This document shows positions 7,189 through 64,000 of a stretch of 64,000 nt of DNA, in pieces. The stretch is from contig JAGTQB010000001.1 in the NCBI GenBank assembly GCA_018396995.1, forward strand, positions 67,584 to 131,583. The letters are read 5' to 3'. The notes beneath the pieces are model-generated. The model was not told the origin of the DNA. It saw nothing but the letters and a program-made list of their open reading frames with translations, and did not search any database. Numbering within the stretch: the first letter of the stretch is position 1; each line of letters starts with the position of its first letter. Source of the stretch: Candidatus Bathyarchaeota archaeon. GTDB taxonomy: Archaea; Thermoproteota; Bathyarchaeia; Bathyarchaeales; DTEX01. Position numbers and translations under genes: made by a program.

Positions 7189-7322
7189 AATCGTTATTTC
7201 AAGAAATAATTATATTTTTCTTTCCGCTCCTCTAATATTTTATCTAAATTGTGGTGATGGAAAAGGCTGGGTGATGGTGGAGGGCGAGTTTTCTGGGAGG
7301 AGCCAATGCTGAGGGAGTTAGG

Positions 7323-9272
7323 ATAGGCGTATATGTATGCCACTGCGGTGTAAATATTGCTGGTGTAATTAATGTAAAGAAAGTTACTGAGTACGCACGT
7401 AATCTCCCAAACGTTATTATAGCCAAGGATCACCTATACCTCTGTTCAGATGCAGGTCAAGCGCTAATTAAGCAGGATATAAAAGAGTATGGGTTAAACC
7501 GCGTGGTTGTCGCCGCCTGCTCACCAAATCTTCACGAACAAACTTTTCGCAAGTGTATAGAAGATGCTGGGTTAAATAAATACCTGCTTGCCATGGCAAA
7601 CATTAGAGAACACTGCTCATGGGTGCATGAAAGCTGGCCTAAAGAGGCGACTGAGAAGGCTATTGATGCTGTTAGGATGGCTGTGGCCCGCGCCAACCTG
7701 CTTGAGCCCCTAGAAACAATTAAAGTCCCCGTTAAGAGAAGTTGCCTAGTGATTGGCGGGGGGATAGCTGGTATCCAAGCAGCTTTAGACCTCGCGAATG
7801 AAGGATTTGATGTTTACTTAGTTGAGAAGGAGCCAAGCATCGGGGGCCTCATGGCAAAATTTGATAAAACTTTCCCAACAATGGATTGCTCAATGTGCAT
7901 ATTATCCCCAAAGATGGCTGAGGTAATGCACCACCCAAAGATCCACCTCTTAACAAATGCTGAAGTCAAGACGGTTTCAGGCTTCATCGGTAATTTTAAA
8001 GTTGAGATCGAGATAAAACCACGGTATATTATAAGCGAAATCTGCAATGGTTGTGGGGAGTGCGTTAAAGTATGTCCTATTGAGGTTCCAAGCGAATTTG
8101 ATGAGAGACTTGGGCCTAGAAAAGCTATATTCGTCCCATTTCCCCAAGCCGTTCCCCTAATCTACATTATTGACATCGAAAATTGCATTAAATGTTACAA
8201 ATGTGTTGACGCTTGCGTGCAAGCGCGCGGGGCTAAAGCAATAGATTTTGCTCAGGAGCCAAAGAGGATGGAGATTGAAGTTGGGACAATAATTGTGGCA
8301 ACTGGATGCAGCACATTTGACCCATCGATTTTAGAGGAATATGGTTATGGCACCTATGAAAACGTGGTTACCGCGCTAGAGTTTGAGAGAATCCTAGCCC
8401 CAACTGGGCCGACCAGGGGCGTGATTTTAAGGCCCTCGGATGGAAGGATCCCGAAGCGTATCGCGTTCGTCCAATGTGTTGGATCTAGGGATAAGAGGAC
8501 GAATATTTACTGTTCAAGGGTCTGCTGTATGTATGCCACAAAGCAGGCTCTGTTAATCAAGGAGAGAATCCCAGACGCTAAGGTGACGATCTTTTACATT
8601 GATATGAGAGCCTTTGGGAAGGGGTTTGAAGAGTTTTATGCTAGGGCTCAGAGTGAAGGAGTATACTATATTAGAGGTAAGGTTGCAGAAATCATTGAAG
8701 ATCCAGGCACTAAAAATTTGAAGCTAGTTGCTGAGGACACCTTGTCCGGGGAGGTAATTGAGACTGAAGCAGACTTAGTGATTTTATCTATTGGGCTTAT
8801 TCCGTCAGCGTCGACGAAAGATTTGCGTGAAAGGATAGGTTTGTTGGTTGGACCTGACGGCTTCTTTAAGGAGGCGCATCCAAAACTAAGGCCTGTTGAC
8901 ACGATTGTCGATGGAATATTTATTGCGGGGGCTGCTCAGGGTCCAAAAGATATCTCGGACAGCGTCGCCCAAGCCAGTGCTGCAGCACAGAGAGCGAGCA
9001 TCCTCATGTCTACCGGAGAATTTGAGACGGAAGCAATAACCGCTAGAGTTAATGGCGATTTATGTAGTGGCTGCCTAATATGTGTTTCCATGTGCCCATT
9101 CAATGCGTTGGTTGTCGAGGGTAAGAACGTAAATGTTAACCAAATTCTTTGTAAGGGTTGTGGGGCCTGCGCTGCAGCATGCCCAGCTAAAGCCATAGAA
9201 ATAATGCATTTCAAAGATCAGCAAATCCTCGTTGAAATTAAGGCTCTTTTGGAAAATGTATCAAGGTTATAG
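7323..9272 (+). CDS. hdrA: Heterodisulfide reductase subunit A-like flavoprotein (HdrA, methanogen-type with N-terminal Cys domain); the start codon is unresolved
   Basis: The ORF track starts at GTG 7503, but the same frame is open from 7275. That upstream stretch encodes RIGVYVCHCGVNIAG...VVAACSPNLHE, the conserved HdrA N-terminal domain. It continues with the FAD fold VIGGGIAGIQAALDLA, an inserted ferredoxin domain (CNGCGECVKVCP, CIKCYKCVDAC) and a C-terminal 2x[4Fe-4S] (CSGCLICVSMCP, CKGCGACAAACP). The 5' end is placed at ATA 7323 only provisionally; the alternatives are CTG 7293 or a frameshift from ATG 7274. Confidence 0.85.
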   Translation: MGVYVCHCGVNIAGVINVKKVTEYARNLPNVIIAKDHLYLCSDAGQALIKQDIKEYGLNRVVVAACSPNLHEQTFRKCIEDAGLNKYLLAMANIREHCSWVHESWPKEATEKAIDAVRMAVARANLLEPLETIKVPVKRSCLVIGGGIAGIQAALDLANEGFDVYLVEKEPSIGGLMAKFDKTFPTMDCSMCILSPKMAEVMHHPKIHLLTNAEVKTVSGFIGNFKVEIEIKPRYIISEICNGCGECVKVCPIEVPSEFDERLGPRKAIFVPFPQAVPLIYIIDIENCIKCYKCVDACVQARGAKAIDFAQEPKRMEIEVGTIIVATGCSTFDPSILEEYGYGTYENVVTALEFERILAPTGPTRGVILRPSDGRIPKRIAFVQCVGSRDKRTNIYCSRVCCMYATKQALLIKERIPDAKVTIFYIDMRAFGKGFEEFYARAQSEGVYYIRGKVAEIIEDPGTKNLKLVAEDTLSGEVIETEADLVILSIGLIPSASTKDLRERIGLLVGPDGFFKEAHPKLRPVDTIVDGIFIAGAAQGPKDISDSVAQASAAAQRASILMSTGEFETEAITARVNGDLCSGCLICVSMCPFNALVVEGKNVNVNQILCKGCGACAAACPAKAIEIMHFKDQQILVEIKALLENVSRL

Positions 9273-18441: not shown

Positions 18442-19824
18442 ATGCATGGGGCTTCTTATAGCGGTAGGATTCCAGTAACCATCACTATTGCGGGGAGTGA
18501 TTCCGGGGGAGGGGCTGGGATACAGGCTGACCTCAAAACCTTCGCAGCTCTCGGGGTACATGGCACAACAGCTGTGACATGTGTGACAGCCCAAAACACG
18601 TATTCTATAACCGCTATAGAGTGCCTTAGACCTGAGATTGTTAGAGAGCAGATAAGGCAGGTTGCTGAAGATATGGGGATTAATGCTGGGAAAACTGGGA
18701 TGCTATATACTGCGGAGATCATTAACACCGTTGCAGAGGAAGTCTCTAGGCATGGCTTTCCACTGGTAGTTGACCCAGTTATGGTCGCAAAGTCCGGAGC
18801 TCCGCTCCTAAGGCCTGAGGCGGAGGAGGCGTTAAAGAGGAGCCTCTTACCTATTGCTACCGTTGTTACACCAAATAAATTTGAGGCTGAGAGATTAGCC
18901 AAAATGGAGATAAGGAGTATTGAGGATGCGAAGGAGGCTGCCGAGAGGATAGGCTCCCTGGGCCCTGAGGCGGTCGTCGTTAAAGGTGGGCACTTTGAGA
19001 CTGCTGGAGAGAGTGTTGATGTGCTCTATTATAGGGGTGAAAAACACGTTTTTAGGACGCCAAGAATATATGCCAAGACAACACATGGCACAGGCTGTAG
19101 CTTCTCAGCCGCCATCGCAGCATACCTCGCTAAGGGTGCGGACATAGTTTCAGCTGTCAGGCTTGCTAAGGAGTTCATTACGGAGGCCATAAGGTTCGGC
19201 CTAAATATTGGTAAAGGAACTGGCCCAGTGAACCCAATGGCCCACATTTACAAAGAAGCTGAGAGGTACCATGTTCTGAAAAATATCTCTGAAGCAAAGA
19301 GTATACTTGAGTCCACGCCCGGCGTTGGTAGGCTCATTCCTGAAGTGGGCATGAACATCGCCATGGCATTATTATATGCGAGCGGGGTTGAAGATGTAGC
19401 CGCCATACCGGGCAGGCTCGTAAAGGTATTTGACGGCGTTAGGGCGGCTTCCTGTCCAGAGTTCGGCGCTTCAAGTCACCTAGCCAGATATATACTAGAA
19501 ATAATGAAGCATGATACCAAGAAGAGAGCTGCGGTAAACGTTATGTACTCTGAGGAGGTGCTGAATATCCTTAGAGAGATGGGTTTGAAGATATCCTTCT
19601 ATGATAGGGCTGAGGAGCCTGAGGAGATAAAGCGTGTTGAGGGAATGACTATCCCATGGGGTGTTAGGCAGGCCATAGCTAGAGTTAGTGGGGTGCCGGA
19701 CGTGATATATCATAGGGGTGATATTGGTAAGGAGCCTATGGTAGTTATCTTCGGAGAGGACGCTGTCTCCCTTGCCAAACTCATCTCTAAAATTGTCCGC
19801 AAAAACATCCAAGATGAGAGCTAA
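18442..19824 (+). CDS. thiD: Bifunctional ThiD kinase / ThiN thiamine-phosphate synthase (archaeal ThiDN)
   Basis: 460 aa. The N-terminal half is ThiD ([38 protein letters not shown]). The C-terminal ~190 aa is ThiN-like (IPEVGMNI...). Confidence 0.9.
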
Positions 19825-21206
19825 AGCGCCACCAGCACTACAACATCATTAACATTTGTTCCAGTTGGGCCGATGAAAATAAGATCCCCAAGGTGCCTAA
19901 AGAATGTATAAGAATCATTATTGAGTAGGTATTCTTCAGGACTTAAACCCATGCCCCTAGCCCTTTCAATGGTTGATCCATCAGCAATAGCCCCAGCAGC
20001 ATCCGTTGGGCCATCAACACCGTCAGTGCTGAAGGACGCTATAGTAACACCCCTTAACCCAGATATGCGTAGAGCGGCTGAGAGAGCTAGCTCCTGATTT
20101 CTACCACCCCTGCCCTTACCAGTAACTATTACAGTTGTCTCCCCACCAGCGACTACGCCAGCAGGGCGCCTTACTGGATTTCCTGAGAACACAACCTCCC
20201 TAGCTATGCTACCAAGGAAAGAGCCTATGACACGAGCCTCGCCCTCCATATAAGTGGTCAATAATAGTGTGTTTAAGCCTTCCTCAGTAAGCTCTTTTAT
20301 GGCAGCCATGCACGCCAGCCTATTATTTCCAACAACAAAATTGTGCACCCTCTTGAAGCAGGGTTCCCCAGCCTTAGGAGTTTCCTCAACTAGACCCATC
20401 TCCCCATTAATTAAAAGCTTTCTGACCGATTCCGGAATACTTTCCCAGACGTTATATTTCTTCAGAACGCTTACCGCATCTTTGAATGTTGTTGAGTCAG
20501 GAACAGTTGGCCCGGAGGCTATCACATCTAGCGGGTCTCCGACAACGTCGGAGAGCAGTAGGCTTATTACTGTTGCTGGGTAAGCGGCTTTGGCGAGATG
20601 CCCGCCCTTAAACATTGACAAATGTTTTCTAACGGAATTTATCTCATCTATTTTTGCACCACATTTAAGCAAGATGTCAGTAATCCTCCTCTTATCCTCA
20701 AGGGATATTCCCTCACGGGGATAAGCCATTAGGCTCGACCCTCCTCCGGAGATGAGACATAGAATTAAGTCTGACTCACCAGCGCCCTTAACTAACTCAA
20801 GTATCCTCTCAGCGCCTTTGACGCTGCTTTCATCCGGAATTGGATGGCCCGCCTCATGAAGCCTAACAAACCTAACATTAACCTTTCCTGCTGTGCCCCG
20901 TGGGACAACAACTATTCCATCGCTTATCTTATCGCCTAAAATCTCCTCTATGGCCTCAGCCATGTATCCGCTGGCCTTACCGCCGCCCACGACGAATATT
21001 CTATTAAAGGATTTAAGGTCGAATGTCGCCCCATCAATGATGAGCTTCTCACCAATAACCTTAACCCTGGAGTGAATAATGCCCTTAGGATCAGCCGCCT
21101 CAATAGCCCTCTCAATAGCATTTAGGATTATCTCCCTAGCTCTTCGATCGAGATTTGAGGATGCATTACCTAAGATCTCATCCCTATTCTTAACCCTAAC
21201 GCCCAT
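19821..21206 (-). CDS. Glycerate 2-kinase (MOFRL / TtuD family)
   Basis: It carries MOFRL-family blocks (VVGGGKASGYMA, LISGGGSSL, GGETTV.V.G.GRGGRNQE, STDG.DGPTDAAGA). The start is taken at the internal ATG 21206 (MGVRVKN...), because the 36 codons further upstream overlap the divergent promoter. Confidence 0.85.
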   Translation of the reverse strand: MGVRVKNRDEILGNASSNLDRRAREIILNAIERAIEAADPKGIIHSRVKVIGEKLIIDGATFDLKSFNRIFVVGGGKASGYMAEAIEEILGDKISDGIVVVPRGTAGKVNVRFVRLHEAGHPIPDESSVKGAERILELVKGAGESDLILCLISGGGSSLMAYPREGISLEDKRRITDILLKCGAKIDEINSVRKHLSMFKGGHLAKAAYPATVISLLLSDVVGDPLDVIASGPTVPDSTTFKDAVSVLKKYNVWESIPESVRKLLINGEMGLVEETPKAGEPCFKRVHNFVVGNNRLACMAAIKELTEEGLNTLLLTTYMEGEARVIGSFLGSIAREVVFSGNPVRRPAGVVAGGETTVIVTGKGRGGRNQELALSAALRISGLRGVTIASFSTDGVDGPTDAAGAIADGSTIERARGMGLSPEEYLLNNDSYTFFRHLGDLIFIGPTGTNVNDVVVLVAL

Positions 21207-21238
21207 ACCACCACAAAAAACAAATACTTCGCTTAAGG

Positions 21239-21249
21239 AAATATATAAA
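21239..21249. promoter_or_regulatory. Putative shared TATA element between divergent glycerate kinase and radical SAM genes
   Basis: aaatatataaa sits in the 67-nt spacer. It is about 25 nt upstream of TTG 21274 (near-leaderless) and about 35 nt from ATG 21206 on the other strand. Confidence 0.4.
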
Positions 21250-21273
21250 GTTAAGTGGCTGGTGGATCTTTTA

Positions 21274-22338
21274 TTGAGGGAAACTTTAAGTTCACCTGTA
21301 GTCCGTGAATCCATCTTTTATAGGCGGATCTCTGGGGATAAGGTTGAATGTGCGCTCTGTGAGCGAAGGTGTATAATTTCTTCTGGGGAATATGGCTTCT
21401 GTAAAACTCGCTTAAACATTAACGGTAAGCTCTACACAGTCGTCTATGGCTTCTTAAGCGCTATAGAAAGTAGGCCAATTGAGATAAAGCCATTCTTCCA
21501 TTACTGGCCGGGCTCAACGGCCCTCACATACTCAACATGGTCATGTAACTTTCTATGCCCATGGTGTCAAAACTGGACACTATCAAAGCACCCGCCAAAC
21601 CTGAAAAACATAGAATATTACACTCCAGAGGAACTCGTTGATCTAGCTATAAAATATGGTGACGAGGGCCTATGCTCAAGCTTTCAGGAGCCAACCCTCC
21701 TGACAGATTGGAATATTGATGCATTCAGGGTTGGGCGTGTGAGAGACCTCTACGCGTGCTATGTCTCTAACGGCTATATGACTCTAGAGGTCTTAAGAGC
21801 CCTATTTGAGTCTGGTATGGATGGGCTGAAGATCGACATTAAGGGTGACCCAGAGGTTTATGAGAAGTATTGCGGTGGAATAGATGCGGATAAGGTTTGG
21901 AGGAATGCCAGAGAGGCAAAGAGGATGGGTTTTCATGTCGAGCTGGTTAACCTTGTGATCACAGATGTTAATGATGATGAGGAGTGTCTGAGGAGTGTAA
22001 TAGAGAGGGCTATTAAGGAAGTTGGCCCGGACACGCCCATACACTTTACCAGATACTACCCGGCATATAAGTTTGATAAGCCCGCAACTAACATAAAGAC
22101 ACTCGAGGACGCCTACAAGATGGCTAAGAACCTTGGTGTATTATATCCATATATAGGTAATGTTCCAGGACATAGATATGAGAACACATACTGCCCAAAC
22201 TGCAATGAAGTCTTGATAAAAAGGTATGGTTTCAGCGTCATACGCTATAATATCACTGAGGATAAGAGGTGTCCTAAATGCGGCTACCAAATAAATATAC
22301 GCGGCCAATATGTGAAAAAGAAGCGTGAGCTCATTTAA
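21274..22338 (+). CDS. AmmeMemoRadiSam-system radical SAM enzyme (PflA-like activase family)
   Basis: It has ...FYRRISGDKVECALCERRCIISSGEYGFCKTR (the N-terminal Cys motif of this family), then WSCNFLCPWCQNW (Cx3Cx2C). The track ORF (21079) extends over the antisense glycerate kinase start. The start is set at TTG 21274; GTG 21262 is also possible. Confidence 0.8.
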   Translation: MRETLSSPVVRESIFYRRISGDKVECALCERRCIISSGEYGFCKTRLNINGKLYTVVYGFLSAIESRPIEIKPFFHYWPGSTALTYSTWSCNFLCPWCQNWTLSKHPPNLKNIEYYTPEELVDLAIKYGDEGLCSSFQEPTLLTDWNIDAFRVGRVRDLYACYVSNGYMTLEVLRALFESGMDGLKIDIKGDPEVYEKYCGGIDADKVWRNAREAKRMGFHVELVNLVITDVNDDEECLRSVIERAIKEVGPDTPIHFTRYYPAYKFDKPATNIKTLEDAYKMAKNLGVLYPYIGNVPGHRYENTYCPNCNEVLIKRYGFSVIRYNITEDKRCPKCGYQINIRGQYVKKKRELI

Positions 22339-41247: not shown

Positions 41248-41404
41248 TTCATCTCACCTTCAGCATGATTTAATATCGAGTATTATAGTTTATGGTTAAG
41301 AATATTAAAGTTACTTAAAGCTGACTGAAGGAAACTTTATTTAAGTTTCCTAACACTATTTATCTAAAAAACATATGTTAAGGGTGATTTAAACGAGGAC
41401 TGGT

Positions 41405-42220
41405 ATTGGACTAGTTGGTTGCGGCACAATAGGTAGCGTTGTTGCTGAGGCTATAGACGACGGGAAGATTGAGAACGCAAGTCTAATAATTATTTATGAT
41501 ATTGTTCCAGAGCATGCTGAAAAACTCGCCTCTAAATTGAAACGTAGACCCCTTATAGCAAGATCTTTAAGCGAGATTTTAGAGAGAAGTGATGTCCACA
41601 TCGTTGTTGAAGCAGCATCACAGGAATTTGTCAAAGAACATGCTGTCGAGATATTAAGCGGCAACAAAGACTTACTAATTATGAGCGTGGGCGCCCTACT
41701 AGATGAATCACTACTCTCCGAGATAATTGACGTCACCAGAAGAACTGGTAGGAAAGTTTATGTTCCATCCGGGGCCATCGTTGGCATAGATAATATTAAG
41801 TCCGCGGCACTAGGAAAGGTTGAGGAGGTAATTCTTGTAACTAGAAAACCTCCGGAAAGCTTTAGGGGAACTGATTTAATCGAGAAGAGTGGAATCGATA
41901 TTTCCTCAATAAAGGAGCCACTCCTTCTCTATGAGGGGCCAGCTCGTAAGGCTGTCGAAATACTCCCACAGAACATTAATGTTGCGGCCACTCTAAGCTT
42001 GGCTGGTATAGGGCCTGATAAAACAAAGGTTAGAGTTATAGCTGATCCGAAAATAAAGGATATAATCCATGAGGTCTATGTTAGGGGTGAGTTCGGAGAA
42101 ATGTATACTAGAACCGTAAATAAGCCCTTCCCAAGCAATCCTAGAACAAGCTATATTGCAGCCCTTTCTGCCATAGCAACCCTAAAAAGAATAACTAGTA
42201 ATATGCTCATCGGTACATAG
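41405..42220 (+). CDS. nadX: L-aspartate dehydrogenase (NadX); the start codon is unresolved
   Basis: The track ORF starts at TTG 41537. The same frame is open from 41393 and encodes TGIGLVGCGTIGSVVAEAI..., the Rossmann GxGxxG of NadX. Later blocks are VVEAASQEFVKEH, VPSGAI.G.D, NVAATL and HEV.VRGEFGEM....N.P...NP.TS. The 5' end is placed at ATT 41405 provisionally. Confidence 0.8.
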   Translation: MGLVGCGTIGSVVAEAIDDGKIENASLIIIYDIVPEHAEKLASKLKRRPLIARSLSEILERSDVHIVVEAASQEFVKEHAVEILSGNKDLLIMSVGALLDESLLSEIIDVTRRTGRKVYVPSGAIVGIDNIKSAALGKVEEVILVTRKPPESFRGTDLIEKSGIDISSIKEPLLLYEGPARKAVEILPQNINVAATLSLAGIGPDKTKVRVIADPKIKDIIHEVYVRGEFGEMYTRTVNKPFPSNPRTSYIAALSAIATLKRITSNMLIGT

Positions 42221-45371: not shown

Positions 45372-45570
45372 TGGTGGGGCTGGCCGGACTTGAACCGGCG
45401 ACCTACGGGTTTCTCCAAGCTCCAGACGATCTTCATCCCCAAGGGGTCAGTAAACCCGTTTCCTGGCATCTGGAGCCCTTAACGGCCTAAGCGGCTAAGC
45501 CGCATTAAGCAGTCGTCATACCTTTCTAGCAGTCACACATGAAGTGTGGCTGCTGCTAGACCACAGCCCC
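45372..45570 (-). tRNA. tRNA-Val(UAC) gene with about 122 nt of intervening sequence in three blocks; the 3' CCA is encoded
   Basis: The reverse strand has acceptor GGGGCTG/CAGCCCC, discriminator A, CCA and the T-arm GCCGG-TTCAAGT-CCGGC. Joining 45570-45556, 45525-45514, 45459-45450 and 45411-45372 gives a 77-nt cloverleaf: GGGGCTGTGGTCTAGAAAGGTATGACGACGGGTTTACAACCCGTAGGTCGCCGGTTCAAGTCCGGCCAGCCCCACCA. This closely resembles archaeal tRNA-Val. Intron borders are ambiguous by a few nt. Confidence 0.8.
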
Positions 45571-45664: not shown

Positions 45665-45796
45665 TGGTGGATTGCCGGCCAAAGGGCGCGGGAACCACCC
45701 AAACCCATTCCGAACTTGGAAGTTAAACCGCGCTCCGTCCCCGGTTTTAGTGGGGTCTTCGGCCCCGCGAAGCTGGGGAAGCTGGCAATCCACCAT
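45665..45796 (+). rRNA. rrf: 5S ribosomal RNA (not linked to 16S/23S)
   Basis: The terminal helix pairs TGGTGGATTGCC with GGCAATCCACCA. Internal conserved blocks are CCCATTCCGAACTTGGAAGTTAAAC and GTGGGG...CCCC...AAGCTGGG. Confidence 0.9.
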
Positions 45797-50720: not shown

Positions 50721-51293
50721 TTAAAATAACCTTATGACTTTTTTCCCTCTTGCCTGCGGGATAACCTTTATCCTAGCATTCTCAAATTCTCTTTTGAGTT
50801 CTTCTCCCATATATAGTTCATGTAGGAAAACGCTTAGAGCTCCGACCTCAGAATGCGGTTGCAGGGTTATTGAGACATTCCAGTCAGCGAGATCGTAGAC
50901 TAATCTCGGAACCTTTTCTCCCCCAACAATGATAAGTTTATCCTTTTTAGACTTCCTTATTTCTTGAATGACTTCATTTAATGGTAAACCATACATTGTT
51001 AAATGTATAGCCTCGCCACCCATCTTTTTCCACTCTCTTATCTTTTTGACCCACTCCTCAACATACTCTATACTGAAAGGGCCTCCCCACGACTCCACGA
51101 CTTTTCTAATACTCGCCTCAACTTTCTCATCCTTTTGCCCACTATAAAATGCTCCGTGAGCACCAAATGCTCTAGCGACAAGAAAAACATGTGTTGTAAT
51201 GCGCTTATCCCTCTCAGGTCTATGCCCAAGTCTAAGGACAAAAACCTTCCAACTATGTTGATGACACAATTTTTCCACCGACTCTTTCAACAA
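50721..51293 (-). CDS. tRNA (cytidine56-2'-O)-methyltransferase aTrm56
   Basis: It has VLRLGHRPERDKRITTHV.LVARAFGA, WGGPF, HLTMYG, IIVGGEKVP, QPHSEV.AL and IPQARGKKV. The true start is probably TTG 51269. Confidence 0.9.
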   Translation of the reverse strand: MLKESVEKLCHQHSWKVFVLRLGHRPERDKRITTHVFLVARAFGAHGAFYSGQKDEKVEASIRKVVESWGGPFSIEYVEEWVKKIREWKKMGGEAIHLTMYGLPLNEVIQEIRKSKKDKLIIVGGEKVPRLVYDLADWNVSITLQPHSEVGALSVFLHELYMGEELKREFENARIKVIPQARGKKVIRLF

Positions 51294-52512
51294 GCGCCAT
51301 AATCTTCTCTATAAGATTCTGCGGCACACCAATGTATACTTTTAGAGAATCATTATCGTATCCTATTCTATGCACCTTCGTATTCTCATATATCCAAGAG
51401 AGGAGAGAAAATGATTCCTGTTGCAGGGGCATTGTTATAGTTAAATCCTCATACCTTTTAAGGGTCTTAGACATCTCCATTTTGAGTAAATCAAGGTTAA
51501 CCCCATATAAGGCTGATATTGGAACGAATTTTAAGTTCTTATAGGCTTCACTTAAATATGCGACCTTATGATACAATTCATCCTTCGATAATAAGTCGAT
51601 CTTATTTAATGCAACTATCATCGGTATCCCCATTGCATCTATCTTTCTCAACGCATCAAGAGAAGATGCAATTTTTCTCATAACCTCATCAATTGTCTCA
51701 CTTATATCGACTACTAATAAAATTAGATCAGAGCAAGTGATCTCTTCCAATGTTGAGTAAAAGGCTTCGATTAAGGTTATGGGCAAACGTTCTATGAAGC
51801 CTACAGTATCCGTAATGAAAGCCTTCTCACCAAAAATATCCATAACTCTTGTCGTTGTAGACAACGTTGTGAAGACCTCTGGTCCAGTTAGAACCTCCTC
51901 TCTTGTGAGGGCGTTAAAAAGCGTGCTCTTGCCAGAGTTAGTGTATCCTGCGAGTGATATGAGGGAAAGACCAAGCTCAGCCCTCCGCGCCCTATGAACC
52001 TGCCTTAACCTTCTAATCTCCTTAAGCTTCTCCTGTATTTTATGAATCCTCCTTTTAATCTCATTATAGTAGACATCTGCCTCATATTTGCCCAATCCAT
52101 GGAAGCCTGGTTGCTCGCCCATCTTAGCAAGCCTAACCTTCTCCCTGGCATGGGCTAGCTCATACTGCAGCCGTGCCAATTCAATTTGGAGTTTAGCCTC
52201 TTTAGTCGAAGCCCTCTTAACAAATATTTCAAGAATTAGCTGGAAGCGATCAATAACTTCTACATTAGTTGCTTTAGCAAGATTATATATTTGAATGACT
52301 TTAAGGTCATTACCAAAAATTATTTTCTCCGCCCCGAGATTCTTAACCATCTGGGTGAGCTCTTTAACCTTTCCCGGACCAATATTATAGCGTGGATGGG
52401 GGAACCTTGTCTGTTCAATAACTCCAACAACTTCGTAGCCAGCTGCCTCGGCTAAACTCTTAAGCTCCTCTATGCATGATTTCTCAAAGGGCCCTCTGCG
52501 ATAAACTAGAAT
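51253..52512 (-). CDS. hflX: GTPase HflX; the start codon is unresolved
   Basis: The track ORF begins at ATG 52350, but the frame is open up to 52527. That stretch encodes ARTRAILVYRRGPFEKSCIEELKSLAEAAGYEVVGVIEQTR...GPGKVKEL, the HflX N-terminal domain. The G domain follows: GYTNSGKSTLFN, DTVGF, NKID. The 5' end is set at ATT 52512 provisionally. Confidence 0.85.
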   Translation of the reverse strand: MLVYRRGPFEKSCIEELKSLAEAAGYEVVGVIEQTRFPHPRYNIGPGKVKELTQMVKNLGAEKIIFGNDLKVIQIYNLAKATNVEVIDRFQLILEIFVKRASTKEAKLQIELARLQYELAHAREKVRLAKMGEQPGFHGLGKYEADVYYNEIKRRIHKIQEKLKEIRRLRQVHRARRAELGLSLISLAGYTNSGKSTLFNALTREEVLTGPEVFTTLSTTTRVMDIFGEKAFITDTVGFIERLPITLIEAFYSTLEEITCSDLILLVVDISETIDEVMRKIASSLDALRKIDAMGIPMIVALNKIDLLSKDELYHKVAYLSEAYKNLKFVPISALYGVNLDLLKMEMSKTLKRYEDLTITMPLQQESFSLLSWIYENTKVHRIGYDNDSLKVYIGVPQNLIEKIMALVERVGGKIVSST

Positions 52513-52527
52513 CGCCCTAGTCCTAGC

Positions 52528-53055
52528 CTACCCCTCCTCATCCCCCTTTATGTGGACAACTTCGCCAAACGTAACTCCTCTTTTACTTCTCATAGCCATG
52601 TTAGTCGACTTGTCTAGATCAATCTCAGGCTGCTTAACCAACAATTTTATCTTCAATGCACGTTCAAGCTTAGTCGCTAGCCTAATGTCAGGTACGATTC
52701 TTTCACCTTCAATCTTCTTAATCACGGACTCCTTCTCTCCAATAATTTTGCCAAGATCCTCTGGCGTTAAGCCCAATTTCTCACGTGCTCTTTTAATTAC
52801 TGAGCCAAAGCCCTCAACTATCTCATAATCATCTTGTATTTGCGTCTGCGTTTGGGAGTATTTACCGCTGACAACTGATTTTATGCTTCTTGATAATTTT
52901 GGGGCAGCCTTTTTTGCAAGGTTCTCTTCTTTTCTAGGGGACCAGTAACCTGACCCAAGCTTAGCACACTCAGCACATGTAATAACATTAGCTCCCTCAA
53001 TGATCACTCTATGCGGCTTCCCTATAATTTTTCGGCCACAGACATCGCACTGCAA
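52528..53055 (-). CDS. Multiprotein bridging factor 1 (aMBF1): zinc ribbon plus cro/C1-type HTH
   Basis: 175 aa with the N-terminal CDVCGR...CAEC and a C-terminal HTH (LGLTPEDLGKIIGEKESVIKKIEGERIVP). Confidence 0.85.
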   Translation of the reverse strand: MQCDVCGRKIIGKPHRVIIEGANVITCAECAKLGSGYWSPRKEENLAKKAAPKLSRSIKSVVSGKYSQTQTQIQDDYEIVEGFGSVIKRAREKLGLTPEDLGKIIGEKESVIKKIEGERIVPDIRLATKLERALKIKLLVKQPEIDLDKSTNMAMRSKRGVTFGEVVHIKGDEEG

Positions 53056-53135
53056 TGTAGAGCACCCAACTACTTATAAATATTTTGGCTTCAACCTTAA
53101 AAACTATTTACTTAAATTTTTACTGAAAAATTTAT

Positions 53136-61595: not shown

Positions 61596-61735
61596 CCTTA
61601 TCGCCTCAATACCTAAAAGTATTACTTTATTGTGATTTAGATATAAATATTTTTGGAGAAACGAATAATGGTCATACTTGTTGCAAAAGTTAATTCTTTA
61701 GAGCTTCTATACTTTATGATGGAGAGTGCGGGAAT

Positions 61736-64000
61736 TTGCCCCTTACTCGTTTCTGGATACTAGACATAAACTATGAAGTGAAGAATCACCAGCCTGAGAT
61801 TTGGCTTTGGGGTATAGATAGTGAAGGAAGAAGAGTTCTAATTATAGACAAGAGCTTCACAACATATTTTTACGTCCTTCCCGAGGAGGGGGAGGATGCC
61901 GAAAAGCTTGCCGATAGGATAAGAAAAGTATGCGCTAACCTGCCATACATAACTGGCGTAGAAGTTGTAGACCGAAAATATTTTGGAAAGCCAGTAAAAG
62001 CGATTAAAATTTACTGTCAGGATCCTGACATCATGCCAGAGTATATTAAGGTCATCTCAAAGGTTAAGGGAATCAGCAGCTTTCTCGAAGACGATATTAG
62101 GTATTCTATGCGCTACATGATTGATAATAACATTGTTCCATGTGGATGGCATGAAGTAGAGGTTGAGGAATGCCCTAACGTGTTAAATGTTCAAGTTGAC
62201 AAAGTGTTAATCGCGAAGTCTACGCCAAGATATCTGTCAGAAATGATCGACATCCCAAAATTGAGGATTCTAGGCTTCTCAATGATATGCTATAGCCCGA
62301 AGGGTTCGCCAAAACCTGAGAAGAACCCTATTGTAATCATCTCAGCCATAACTAATACTGGCGAAGAGAAACAATTTATTGCAGAAAAGACTGAAGATGA
62401 TAGAAAAATAATTAACGATTTTATGAATTTTATAAGGAATTTTGACCCAGATATAATAGTTGGCTTTGAAACAAATAGAAGGGATATACCGTATTTAGTG
62501 GCGAGGGCAAAGGCGAACGGGTTATCTCTAGTAATTGATAGAGCTGGCGCCGAGCCGCATACAAGCACTTATGGCCATGTCTCCATAACTGGTAGGGCTA
62601 ACGTAGACCTATTTGATTATGCGGACGAGTTCCCCGAGGTTAAAGTCAAGACTCTAGAAAACATAGCTGATTACTTGGGGGTCATGAAAATCGAGGAAAG
62701 AGTGTTAATAGAGGATTTTGAGTATGCTCAATATTGGGATGATCCTTCAAAGAGACCAGAGCTACTAAAATTTCTCATGGATAATACAAGGTGCATAATG
62801 GGTATAACTGAGGCAATACTAGACTTCGCAATTCAGCTTTCAAGCCTAGTTGGCCTGCCGCTAGACCATGTCGGCACAGCTGCGGTCGGCTTTAGGGTCG
62901 AATGGTTCCTAATACGTCATGCCTATCACATGGGTGAATTAGTGCCAAAGAAGATTGAGAGAGCGTACACGCCATATGCTGGCGCCCTCGTCTTGGAACC
63001 CAATCCCGGGATTCATGAAAATATAGCAGTTTTAGACTTTAAATCCATGTACCCAAATATAATGATATCTTATAACGTCTCACCAGACACATATATCCCA
63101 CCAGGAGAACCGGAGATAGATGCCTTTATAGCGCCGGAAGTAAACCATAGATTTAGAAAAGAGCCGCCGGGATTCTACCGTGAGGTTCTCGCAAAACTTA
63201 TTAAAGCAAGAGATCATGTAAGGGAGGAGCTTAAGAGGGTTGATCGTGGAACCATTAAGTACAGGATCCTTGATGCCCGCCAAAAGGCAATTAAGGTTAT
63301 TACTAATGCAACATATGGTTATGCGGGGTGGATAGGCGCTAGATGGTACATTAAACCCGTTGCAGAAGCTGTTACGGCGTGGGGCAGACATATAATCATG
63401 AGCACCATTAAAGCCGCCAAAAATATTGGTTTAGAAGTCATCTATGGTGACACAGATAGCATTTTTGTGAGGAACGACCCAGAGAAAATTGAGAGACTAT
63501 CTAAGATTATTGAGGAGAAATTCGGTTTAGAAATAAAGCCGGATAAGGTATATACGCGCGTCCTCTTCACTGAGGCAAAGAAGCGTTATTGTGGCTTAAT
63601 GCCGGATGGAAAACTTGACATAGTTGGGCTGGAAGTTGTTAGGGGGGACTGGGCAAACGTGGCAAAACATATTCAGGAGAAGGTTCTGGAGATAATTCTG
63701 AAGGAGCAGACAGTTAGGAGAGCAGTGGATTATGTACGTAAATATATAATAAATTTGAGAGAGAAGAAAATTCCGTACCGCGACCTAATAATATGGAAGA
63801 CATTAACAAAGTCTCCTGAAGAGTATGAAGTGAAGGCACCGCATGTTGAAGCTGCAAAGTCTCTCCAGAAGGAAGGGTGGACATTAACCGTCGGCGATAA
63901 AGTTGGCTATGTTATAACGGTGGGCTCAGGTAAACTCCATGAGCGGGCTAAACCATACCTCTTAGCGTCTTATGACGAGATAGACATAGAATACTATGTA
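61736..64000 (+). CDS. polB: Family B DNA polymerase (partial; the C-terminus lies beyond the window end), with degenerate exonuclease motifs
   Basis: It is not in the ORF track because there is no stop in the window. It starts at TTG 61736: MPLTRFWILDINYEV... It has pol motif A DFKSMYPNIMISYN, motif B KVITNATYGYAG and motif C YGDTDS. The Exo I position reads FSMIC instead of FDIET. Confidence 0.9.
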   Translation, partial: MPLTRFWILDINYEVKNHQPEIWLWGIDSEGRRVLIIDKSFTTYFYVLPEEGEDAEKLADRIRKVCANLPYITGVEVVDRKYFGKPVKAIKIYCQDPDIMPEYIKVISKVKGISSFLEDDIRYSMRYMIDNNIVPCGWHEVEVEECPNVLNVQVDKVLIAKSTPRYLSEMIDIPKLRILGFSMICYSPKGSPKPEKNPIVIISAITNTGEEKQFIAEKTEDDRKIINDFMNFIRNFDPDIIVGFETNRRDIPYLVARAKANGLSLVIDRAGAEPHTSTYGHVSITGRANVDLFDYADEFPEVKVKTLENIADYLGVMKIEERVLIEDFEYAQYWDDPSKRPELLKFLMDNTRCIMGITEAILDFAIQLSSLVGLPLDHVGTAAVGFRVEWFLIRHAYHMGELVPKKIERAYTPYAGALVLEPNPGIHENIAVLDFKSMYPNIMISYNVSPDTYIPPGEPEIDAFIAPEVNHRFRKEPPGFYREVLAKLIKARDHVREELKRVDRGTIKYRILDARQKAIKVITNATYGYAGWIGARWYIKPVAEAVTAWGRHIIMSTIKAAKNIGLEVIYGDTDSIFVRNDPEKIERLSKIIEEKFGLEIKPDKVYTRVLFTEAKKRYCGLMPDGKLDIVGLEVVRGDWANVAKHIQEKVLEIILKEQTVRRAVDYVRKYIINLREKKIPYRDLIIWKTLTKSPEEYEVKAPHVEAAKSLQKEGWTLTVGDKVGYVITVGSGKLHERAKPYLLASYDEIDIEYYV

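Follow-up and report, generated by a model that had tools for sequence, protein, structure and literature searches.

Loss of the canonical hflX start codon beside mbf1 in a Bathyarchaeia lineage, and its probable replacement by a near-cognate codon

The question raised by this locus is where translation begins in a conserved GTPase gene whose reading frame opens directly behind the stop codon of its neighbour and offers no usual start codon until well inside the protein. The locus is the junction between mbf1 and hflX on the minus strand of a 64,000-nucleotide stretch of DNA, called the window below, from Candidatus Bathyarchaeota archaeon (assembly GCA_018396995.1, contig JAGTQB010000001.1, positions 67,584 to 131,583). 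Its codons read GAT GAG GAG GGG TAG GCT AGG ACT AGG GCG ATT (52512-52510) CTA GTT TAT CGC AGA GGG. Beyond the mbf1 TAG the hflX frame reads ARTRAILVYRRGPFEKSCIEELKSLAEAAGYEVVGV... and is open until TAG 51255-51253, and its first ATG, GTG or TTG is ATG 52350, codon 60 of the stop-to-stop frame. The sequence and the open reading frame (ORF) list agree with the initial annotation, in which mbf1 and hflX were placed in one frame across the TAG and hflX was said to have no canonical start. We propose as the probable explanation that hflX is functional, that its ancestral start was lost by a net deletion of one nucleotide, and that it would now be initiated at a near-cognate codon just past the mbf1 stop, most likely ATT 52512, probably coupled to termination. 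The features concerned, all on the minus strand, are as follows.

TTG 53055 to TAG 52530-52528, minus strand: mbf1 (archaeal MBF1, 175 aa, ending ..KGDEEG), from the ORF list.
52506..52541, minus strand: relic of the ancestral hflX start, ATG 52541, encoding MRRGRLGLGRF (11 codons) up to TAG 52508-52506, one base off the hflX frame.
52531..52539, minus strand: Shine-Dalgarno (SD)-like purine tract GAGGAGGGG at the 3′ end of mbf1, recognised from its duplex energy and from equivalents in relatives.
52513..52527, minus strand: spacer GCT AGG ACT AGG GCG, 15 nt from the mbf1 stop to ATT, unusually conserved.
52510..52512, minus strand: ATT, likeliest hflX initiation codon, from the homologous ATG in lineages L173/L174 and from GenBank proteins.
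52504..52506, minus strand: GTT (Val), with GTG at the same place in the sister lineage L011/L012, used there as start.
52348..52350, minus strand: ATG, first canonical in-frame hflX start, from which Prodigal-type callers give the truncated 365-aa product P0002.
52222..52476, minus strand: HflX N-terminal domain GTP-bdg_N, residues 18-102 of the stop-to-stop frame, from Pfam.
51253..52512, minus strand: hflX as proposed, 419 codons plus stop TAG 51255-51253, from GTP-bdg_N, GTP-bdg_M and MMR_HSR1 matches, HflX structures and omega.

Homologs place the organism in the Bathyarchaeia, and the domains and motifs found are those of the HflX GTPase and archaeal MBF1 families. The HflX frame matched the Pfam families GTP-bdg_N (PF13167, E=1.7e-25, aa 18-102) and GTP-bdg_M, the helical linker (PF16360, E=4.6e-19, aa 105-182), and its G domain matched MMR_HSR1 (E=2.1e-19), with the G1 motif GYTNSGKST present. 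Against solved HflX structures phmmer gave 2.7e-53 for 5ADY/7YLA and 1.7e-51 for 2QTF, the alignments opening at residue 13-16 of the stop-to-stop frame. MBF1 was recognised by its N-terminal Zn ribbon (MQCDVCG...CAEC) and its C-terminal HTH_3 domain (Pfam E=3.6e-8). ATG 52350 had been described as lying inside the conserved domain, and the GTP-bdg_N match at residues 18-102 indeed spans that Met.

The junction was found to be the same, base for base, in assemblies from four samples (JGI 3300025089, SRR21619495, SRR27041559 and SRR5468568). The hflX gene of the window was also found in several metagenome-assembled genomes (MAGs) at NCBI, and the junction architecture is common to the window and its sister lineage L011/L012. 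A sequencing or assembly error at the junction is therefore ruled out. It had been foreseen that orthologous junctions might carry an ordinary ATG at the ATT position, the ATT of the window being a read error; an ortholog with such an ATG was found, as described below, and the read error was not borne out.

To judge translation ahead of ATG 52350, 55 codons, from A 52515 to Met 52350, were compared pairwise with those of relatives. Between the window and lineage L005 there were 25 synonymous and 9 non-synonymous differences in this region (omega ~0.05), and between the window and L011 omega was ~0.2; the remainder of hflX gave values of 0.04-0.13 in pairs with unsaturated synonymous divergence (dS). 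The 55 codons encode half of the HflX N-terminal domain. Strong purifying selection on them, together with their share of the domain, shows that the hflX region upstream of ATG 52350 is translated. A start of HflX at Met 52350, which had been named as an observation that would overturn the reading, is left unsupported by this selection and by the fact that L005 is likewise without a canonical start.

The origin of the arrangement was sought in codon-aligned junctions, and the family proved to have two positions for the hflX start. Site 2 is the first Ile of the conserved A-I-I-V motif, and site 1 precedes that motif by about 10 codons. Site 1 is ATG in L098, GTG in L101 and L019, and TTG in L100, and is followed by AGA GGA GGA (R-G-G). 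ATG 52541 of the window aligns with these site 1 starts, one base out of the hflX frame. The distance from the mbf1 His codon to GCGAT is 39 nt in the window versus 40 nt in L101, and in the MAFFT alignment the gap of the window was placed directly before the TAG. A net one-nucleotide deletion in the purine-rich overlap of mbf1 and hflX thus pushed the ancestral ATG out of frame, and the same deletion brought mbf1 into the hflX frame, where it ends on a stop that was already there. Lineages L005 and L175, with mbf1 in another frame and with a start, 4-5 codons and TAG followed by T(R/K)(T/S)KA..VYR, still show the earlier state, before mbf1 entered the hflX frame. The simplest reading is that the purine-repeat, dual-coding overlap is prone to insertions and deletions and that neither the tail of MBF1 nor the N-terminal extension of HflX is needed.

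The single shared frame, to which the initial annotation had attached meaning, is explained by the one-nucleotide deletion, and same-frame mbf1/hflX pairs were also found in unrelated Thermoproteota lineages (L039, L062, L067, L130 and L140). It is a by-product of the deletion and no fusion signal, a chance event of one in three; the missing canonical start is the non-trivial part. As a separate observation, in lineages of the ancestral type (L019, L097, L100 and L101) the end of mbf1 and the start of hflX have ~47-62 nt in common, read in different frames, and this overlap encodes both an MBF1 tail (..KRRKREDEGDNSLP) and an HflX N-terminal extension.

The loss of the start is not confined to the window. 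Among 31 distinct junction types from related Bathyarchaeia, in which a canonical start was sought from the upstream in-frame stop to codon +4 (codon 0 being the Ala of the A-I-I-V motif), 19 have no canonical hflX start; in a separate set of mbf1-hflX junction types, eleven have none before codon +55. The corresponding loss was seen in none of 29 junction types for mbf1 (Fisher p=8e-8 versus hflX) and in none of 16 for trm56 (p=2e-5): mbf1 has TTG or ATG exactly two codons ahead of its first Cys in 29/29, and trm56 keeps TTG. At site 1 the relatives carry ATT or ATC (eight lineages), ATA (L028) or, elsewhere, GCA, AAT, AGT or GGT. A neighbour-joining tree gave several independent losses of the canonical hflX start, and placed the stop at codon -5 as ancestral to a subclade with internal dS of ~1.5-2. 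All 31 junction types have an SD-like element and end mbf1 at -17..+29 nt relative to codon 0. Evidently, hflX has lost its canonical start repeatedly in this archaeal family, and the loss is peculiar to that gene. General gene decay in these MAGs is ruled out for this operon by the invariant mbf1 and trm56 starts. In L028 (JAWAXL010000006.1) the hflX frame counted from the conserved strand ends after 205 codons, and a frameshift or a pseudogene is possible there.

Which codon is now used can be approached through the closest clade, with at least 80% identity to the window, all members of which have a stop at codon -5. In L173/L174 (L173 being an 81% relative) the junction reads AAT AGG ACT AGG GCG ATG ATA GTA, with the stop TAG and ATG at +1. 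L176, an 80% relative, has the stop TAA followed at codon 0 by GCA ATA CTA GTG, so that ATA stands at +1 and GTG at +3. L011 has TAG and then GCG ATT CTA GTG, its GTG at +3 overlapping the stop of the relic ORF (TAGTG), and the L011/L012 product P0001 is called from this GTG. The window has TAG, ATT at +1 and GTT at +3, owing to a change of G to T at 52504 relative to its sister. The 12 nt AGG ACT AGG GCG upstream of ATT are identical in L173, where they precede a real ATG, and 12 of the 15 nt of the spacer are the same in L005 despite a dS of ~1.5. In the NCBI annotation of L175, HflX starts from ATA at the position homologous to ATT 52512. ATT 52512 thus stands where L173/L174 have ATG, with the next canonical codon 54 codons downstream, inside the domain, and these alignments show its homology with a genuine ATG start.

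An exact look-up showed that the ATT-initiated HflX of 419 aa is already in the public record as MBS7640141.1, MEM1716532.1, MEM1783631.1 and MEM1838580.1. Other assemblies of the same gene are annotated from ATA 52473 (P0242, 406 aa), and the gene callers of JGI, ENA and Logan report the Met-52350 product of 365 aa (P0002). NCBI translation table 11 permits ATT, ATC, ATA and CTG as starts; the ATT annotation in GenBank is a computational choice of the Prokaryotic Genome Annotation Pipeline (PGAP) and no proof of use. Initiation or reinitiation at ATT 52512, one of the options offered in the initial annotation, is the best supported of these through the L173 ATG, the shared upstream context and the NCBI annotation; we infer the exact codon, as well as the mechanism of coupling.

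Two further observations concern the nucleotides around this site. In L005, L011, L173 and L176, where the 15-nt spacer separates a stop from the presumed start, it has changed far less than synonymous sites, and both a coding function and an initiation signal are possible. Most related junction types use ACG for the Thr at -2, which fits a dual MBF1/HflX constraint. ACG at -2 or -4 is present in all related lineages except the subclade of the window and L017. As a general hidden start it was rejected, being absent from the window and explained by dual coding of the MBF1 tail (D/N-E); only the relatives remain candidates for its use.

The geometry around ATT fits reinitiation. The mbf1 TAG lies 15 nt upstream of ATT and the relic stop 1 nt downstream, and the duplex of the SD-like GAGGAGGGG with the assumed 3′ tail of 16S rRNA has an energy of -11.2 kcal/mol, among the strongest in the window. 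Our explanation would then run as follows. A net one-nucleotide deletion in the purine-rich overlap displaced the ancestral start, now ATG 52541, and made mbf1 stop at the TAG in the hflX frame. HflX would be initiated at a near-cognate codon no more than ~20 nt downstream of that TAG, most likely at ATT 52512, to give MLVYRRGPFEK... (419 aa). Ribosomes terminating on mbf1, 15 nt upstream of ATT, and on the 11-codon relic ORF, with its stop at 52508-52506, would help, and the strong SD-like GAGGAGGGG may tether the small subunit. HflX is in short plausibly initiated downstream without a canonical codon, by termination-coupled reinitiation.

Several points weigh against ATT 52512 as the start. 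The SD-like GAGGAGGGG lies 16 nt from ATT, versus 3-8 nt normally in the window, and would fit AGG 52524 (4 nt) or ACT 52521 better; the 17 nt given earlier for this distance is close to the 18 nt obtained from coordinates. In L005 GTA stands in place of ATT, and the next codon is ATA. Conservation of the spacer upstream of ATT could mean that the spacer is itself translated. In every lineage ATT serves as an Ile codon within a conserved beta-strand, and finding it here does not by itself speak for use as a start. GTG to GTT is the sole difference between the window and its sister, and a recent start loss with reduced expression is conceivable. Finally, in S. solfataricus aIF1 reportedly selects against non-canonical starts, according to a statement cited in PMC6237735.

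A wider form of the proposal is possible, and we put it forward tentatively: reinitiation in this Bathyarchaeia family may be tolerant of the start codon, an invariant GGAGG-type element tethering post-mbf1 ribosomes, which would restart on a nearby near-cognate codon and make the canonical start dispensable. Such tolerance would account for the start loss in 19/31 hflX junctions versus none in mbf1 and trm56. The same tolerance may operate genome-wide: the hdrA and aspartate dehydrogenase genes of the window, described below, meet a stop 3-6 codons behind their canonical start and are intact beyond it, as though ribosomes could readily resume at ACG, CUG or AUU once a tiny leader ORF has ended. 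In Haloferax, near-cognate sites made up ~30% of the putative alternative initiation sites in Ribo-seq data and were set aside by the authors (PMC7261190). A literature search on start-codon usage in Bathyarchaeia or Bathyarchaeota found nothing relevant.

The rival that survives best, itself rather improbable in our estimation, is that the SD-like element sets a different non-canonical codon, mainly AGG 52524 (or ACT 52521, AGG 52518 or GTT 52506), giving M-TRAILVYRR... and making the spacer coding. The SD-like GGAGGGGUA ends 4 nt ahead of AGG 52524, a typical spacing; all five lineages with the -5 stop have AGG at -3, and changes in codons -2..0 are at third positions or exchange R and K. 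The HflX protein P0022 and that of S. solfataricus (the 2QTF sequence) both start MKT(R)A..., 3-4 residues ahead of codon 0. What counts against AGG is its mismatch with the middle position of the initiator anticodon, and in bacteria and eukaryotes it ranks with the least efficient near-cognates. The same 12 nt precede a real ATG in L173 and are presumably untranslated there, and substitutions in the spacer are too few to separate coding from RNA-level constraint. AGG 52524 stays a rival on the strength of the SD spacing, the invariant AGG at -3 and the conserved spacer.

Early decay is an unlikely account, in which the change of GTG to GTT (52506-52504) would have left hflX untranslated, under-expressed or truncated from Met 52350. 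The window alone in the clade of at least 80% identity lacks a canonical codon at both +1 and +3, the 365-aa form is what gene callers output, and two other genes of the window have 5′-proximal stops. Set against this, the ORF is intact over 424 codons and the allele is fixed in many samples; start-less hflX is under strong purifying selection in L005 and in many lineages over dS>1, and a Met-52350 start would remove half of the N-terminal domain.

Translation across the mbf1 TAG, by low-level read-through or by pyrrolysine (Pyl) decoding, to give an MBF1-HflX fusion of ~67 kDa that supplies HflX activity, is in our view very unlikely; the initial annotation had offered read-through as an option and named Pyl decoding as something to exclude. 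It would draw on the two ORFs standing in one frame with a single TAG between them, on the ribosome association of both proteins and on the conservation of the gene pair. TAG is, however, the commonest stop of the window, ending 24 of its 59 long ORFs (24 TAG, 22 TAA, 13 TGA) and also hflX itself. The homologous position is TAA in L176, and CGG and CAG in L014 and L028. L005 and L015/L175 have mbf1 in a different frame, and there only a relic ORF of 5-6 codons precedes the TAG of the hflX frame. No fused MBF1-HflX homolog was found among the best 120 HflX matches, the longest of which has 448 aa, and the RNA behind the stop forms no significant structure. Genome-wide reassignment of TAG, or Pyl decoding, was rejected on the stop usage of the window and the TAA of L176, and a fusion as conserved product on the L005/L175 frames and the lack of a long homolog among the best matches. 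No pyl-like ORF was noticed in the 64-kb window, the part of the genome covered.

An internal promoter in the 3′ end of mbf1 is equally improbable. The TATA-like ATAAAG at 52551-52546 would produce a short-leader or leaderless hflX transcript from ~52524-52515, independent of mbf1. Archaeal TATA boxes lie ~26 nt upstream of transcription start sites, which counts in its favour, and (A/T)TAAA(A/G)G occurs ~35-40 nt upstream of codon 0 in all relatives. This conservation is explained by the motif encoding the conserved I/L-K of the MBF1 C-terminus, and ribosomes normally start on a leaderless transcript only if AUG or GUG stands at its 5′ end.

Scarcely credible is a programmed -1 frameshift from the relic ORF restoring the ancestral N-terminus, for which it can be said that ATG 52541 is the ancestral start, that the hflX frame is its -1 frame and that the relic ATG is kept in the sister L011, and against which stand the lack of a slippery heptamer and of a stimulatory structure, the poor SD spacing of the relic ATG, the absence of a relic start in L173 and the fact that L005 and L175 need no shift. 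By inspection, no X XXY YYZ heptamer lies between TAG 52530 and TAG 52508 or in 52541-52506, and the junction RNA gave a fold z of -0.12, with a covariation term of +0.03 kcal/mol in the alignment fold, essentially none. A hairpin for recoding or coupling was likewise rejected, the only stem at the junction being a trivial GCGAU/AUCGC, insignificant and essentially without covariation.

Near-cognate initiation just past the mbf1 stop, most likely at ATT 52512, remains our preferred explanation, and part of it is of a known kind. The ATT call for the hflX gene of the window is already in GenBank, and a non-canonical start with probable coupling is a familiar situation. New here are the evolutionary account, by a one-nucleotide deletion at an overlapping start, and the recurrent, gene-specific loss of that start. 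The data do not indicate a new genetic code, a recoding signal or a fusion protein.

Two other genes of the window are damaged a few codons behind their canonical start and are otherwise intact, so that with hflX there are three among ~59 long ORFs within the 64 kb, which hints at a wider tolerance of 5′-proximal lesions. The hdrA-like gene (7257-9272, plus strand) begins ATG 7257 GAA AAG GCT GGG TGA (7272-7274) TGG TGG, with an in-frame TGA at codon 6; near-identical strains (P0248 and P0252) read MEKAGRWWRASF..., with Arg at the TGA position. The conserved part of HdrA (RIGVYVCHCG...) precedes GTG 7503, the earliest canonical start, by 60 codons, and HdrA structures align from residue 13-16; NCBI/PGAP starts it at CTG 7293 (MBS7640093.1), and other assemblies have versions of 638 or 559 aa. 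The aspartate dehydrogenase gene (41375-42220, plus strand) reads GTG 41384 ATT TAA (41390) ACG 41393 AGG ACT GGT ATT GGA where relatives have (M/V)ILTKIGVG, so that codon 3 has changed from TTA to TAA, and GGGTGAT-TTAA-ACG mimics a perfect layout of SD plus start. Its NAD-binding domain runs from residue 9, with the GxGxxG loop upstream of the first canonical start (TTG 41537, residue 49), and the NCBI start is an ATA inside that loop (P0121).

Further features of the window were noted. Upstream of the mbf1 TTG start (53056-53090, minus strand) a TATA-like TTTATAA lies at ~25 nt, so that the operon may be transcribed without a leader or with a very short one; most relatives likewise begin mbf1 with TTG. 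A scan at default settings found no tRNA genes in the window. A tRNA-Ser(GGA) at ~45372-45570 (minus strand), with a 113-nt intron at the non-canonical position 32/33, was missed by default ARAGORN and seen with relaxed, intron-tolerant settings; there is a sub-threshold Rfam match to the tRNA clan at 45372-45440. A 5S rRNA gene at 45671-45790 (plus strand, Rfam 72 bits) stands alone, the window having neither 16S nor 23S. Over about 1.5 kb at 61600-63080 neither strand offers a convincing ORF, and Rfam gave no match. The longest ORF of a radical-SAM-like gene (21079-22338, plus strand) overlaps its convergent neighbour (19821-21314, minus strand) by ~235 nt, and its real start is probably internal.

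The case has practical consequences for annotation. Standard gene callers cut 54 residues off HflX here and do likewise in many relatives, and PGAP is inconsistent, opening the same gene with ATT in one set of assemblies and with ATA 52473 in another; as a result, family alignments and domain statistics of archaeal HflX are contaminated. It is also a natural, phylogenetically replicated case suggesting that near-cognate starts are usable by archaeal ribosomes at an internal cistron, a poorly documented side of archaeal initiation. If expression of HflX is tied to mbf1 termination, co-regulation of two ribosome-associated factors becomes a testable hypothesis.

Compared with known systems, the gene neighbourhood itself is familiar. 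Proximity of mbf1 and hflX in Crenarchaeota has been published (Marrero Coto et al. 2011, PMC3062615, citing de Koning et al. 2009), with the same gene order of a tgt-like/PUA gene, mbf1 and hflX, and tfe nearby; the literature records the proximity alone, and neither the geometry of overlap or coupling nor the loss of the hflX start is described there. The linkage that the initial annotation found suggestive is thus already on record for Crenarchaeota (PMC3062615). With stop recoding in archaea, by Pyl or read-through, the junction shares an in-frame UAG between two conserved coding regions; it differs in that UAG is the most used stop, that UAA replaces it in L176 and that the upstream frame varies. 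The junction also resembles termination-reinitiation, as in bacterial and archaeal operons whose stop and start overlap or adjoin, and as in caliciviruses and influenza B, where reinitiation is tethered by the termination upstream ribosome-binding site (TURBS) and is tolerant of non-AUG restart codons: in both, the stop lies no more than ~20 nt from the restart, a motif complementary to rRNA lies upstream and the requirement for a start codon is seemingly relaxed. Unlike standard coupling, the spacing from SD to ATT is atypical, mbf1 of relatives of the ancestral type ends 47-62 nt downstream of the hflX start, and dependence on mbf1 translation is presumed. Like the genes with AUU, AUA or CUG starts of the bacterial infC/pcnB type, hflX here is a conserved housekeeping gene for a translation factor that has AUU where orthologs have AUG. 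In infC the AUU is conserved and serves as the sensor of an autoregulatory loop, whereas in hflX the codon varies (ATT, ATA, ATC, GTA-ATA), doubles as the Ile of beta-strand 1 and stems from repeated loss of the start.

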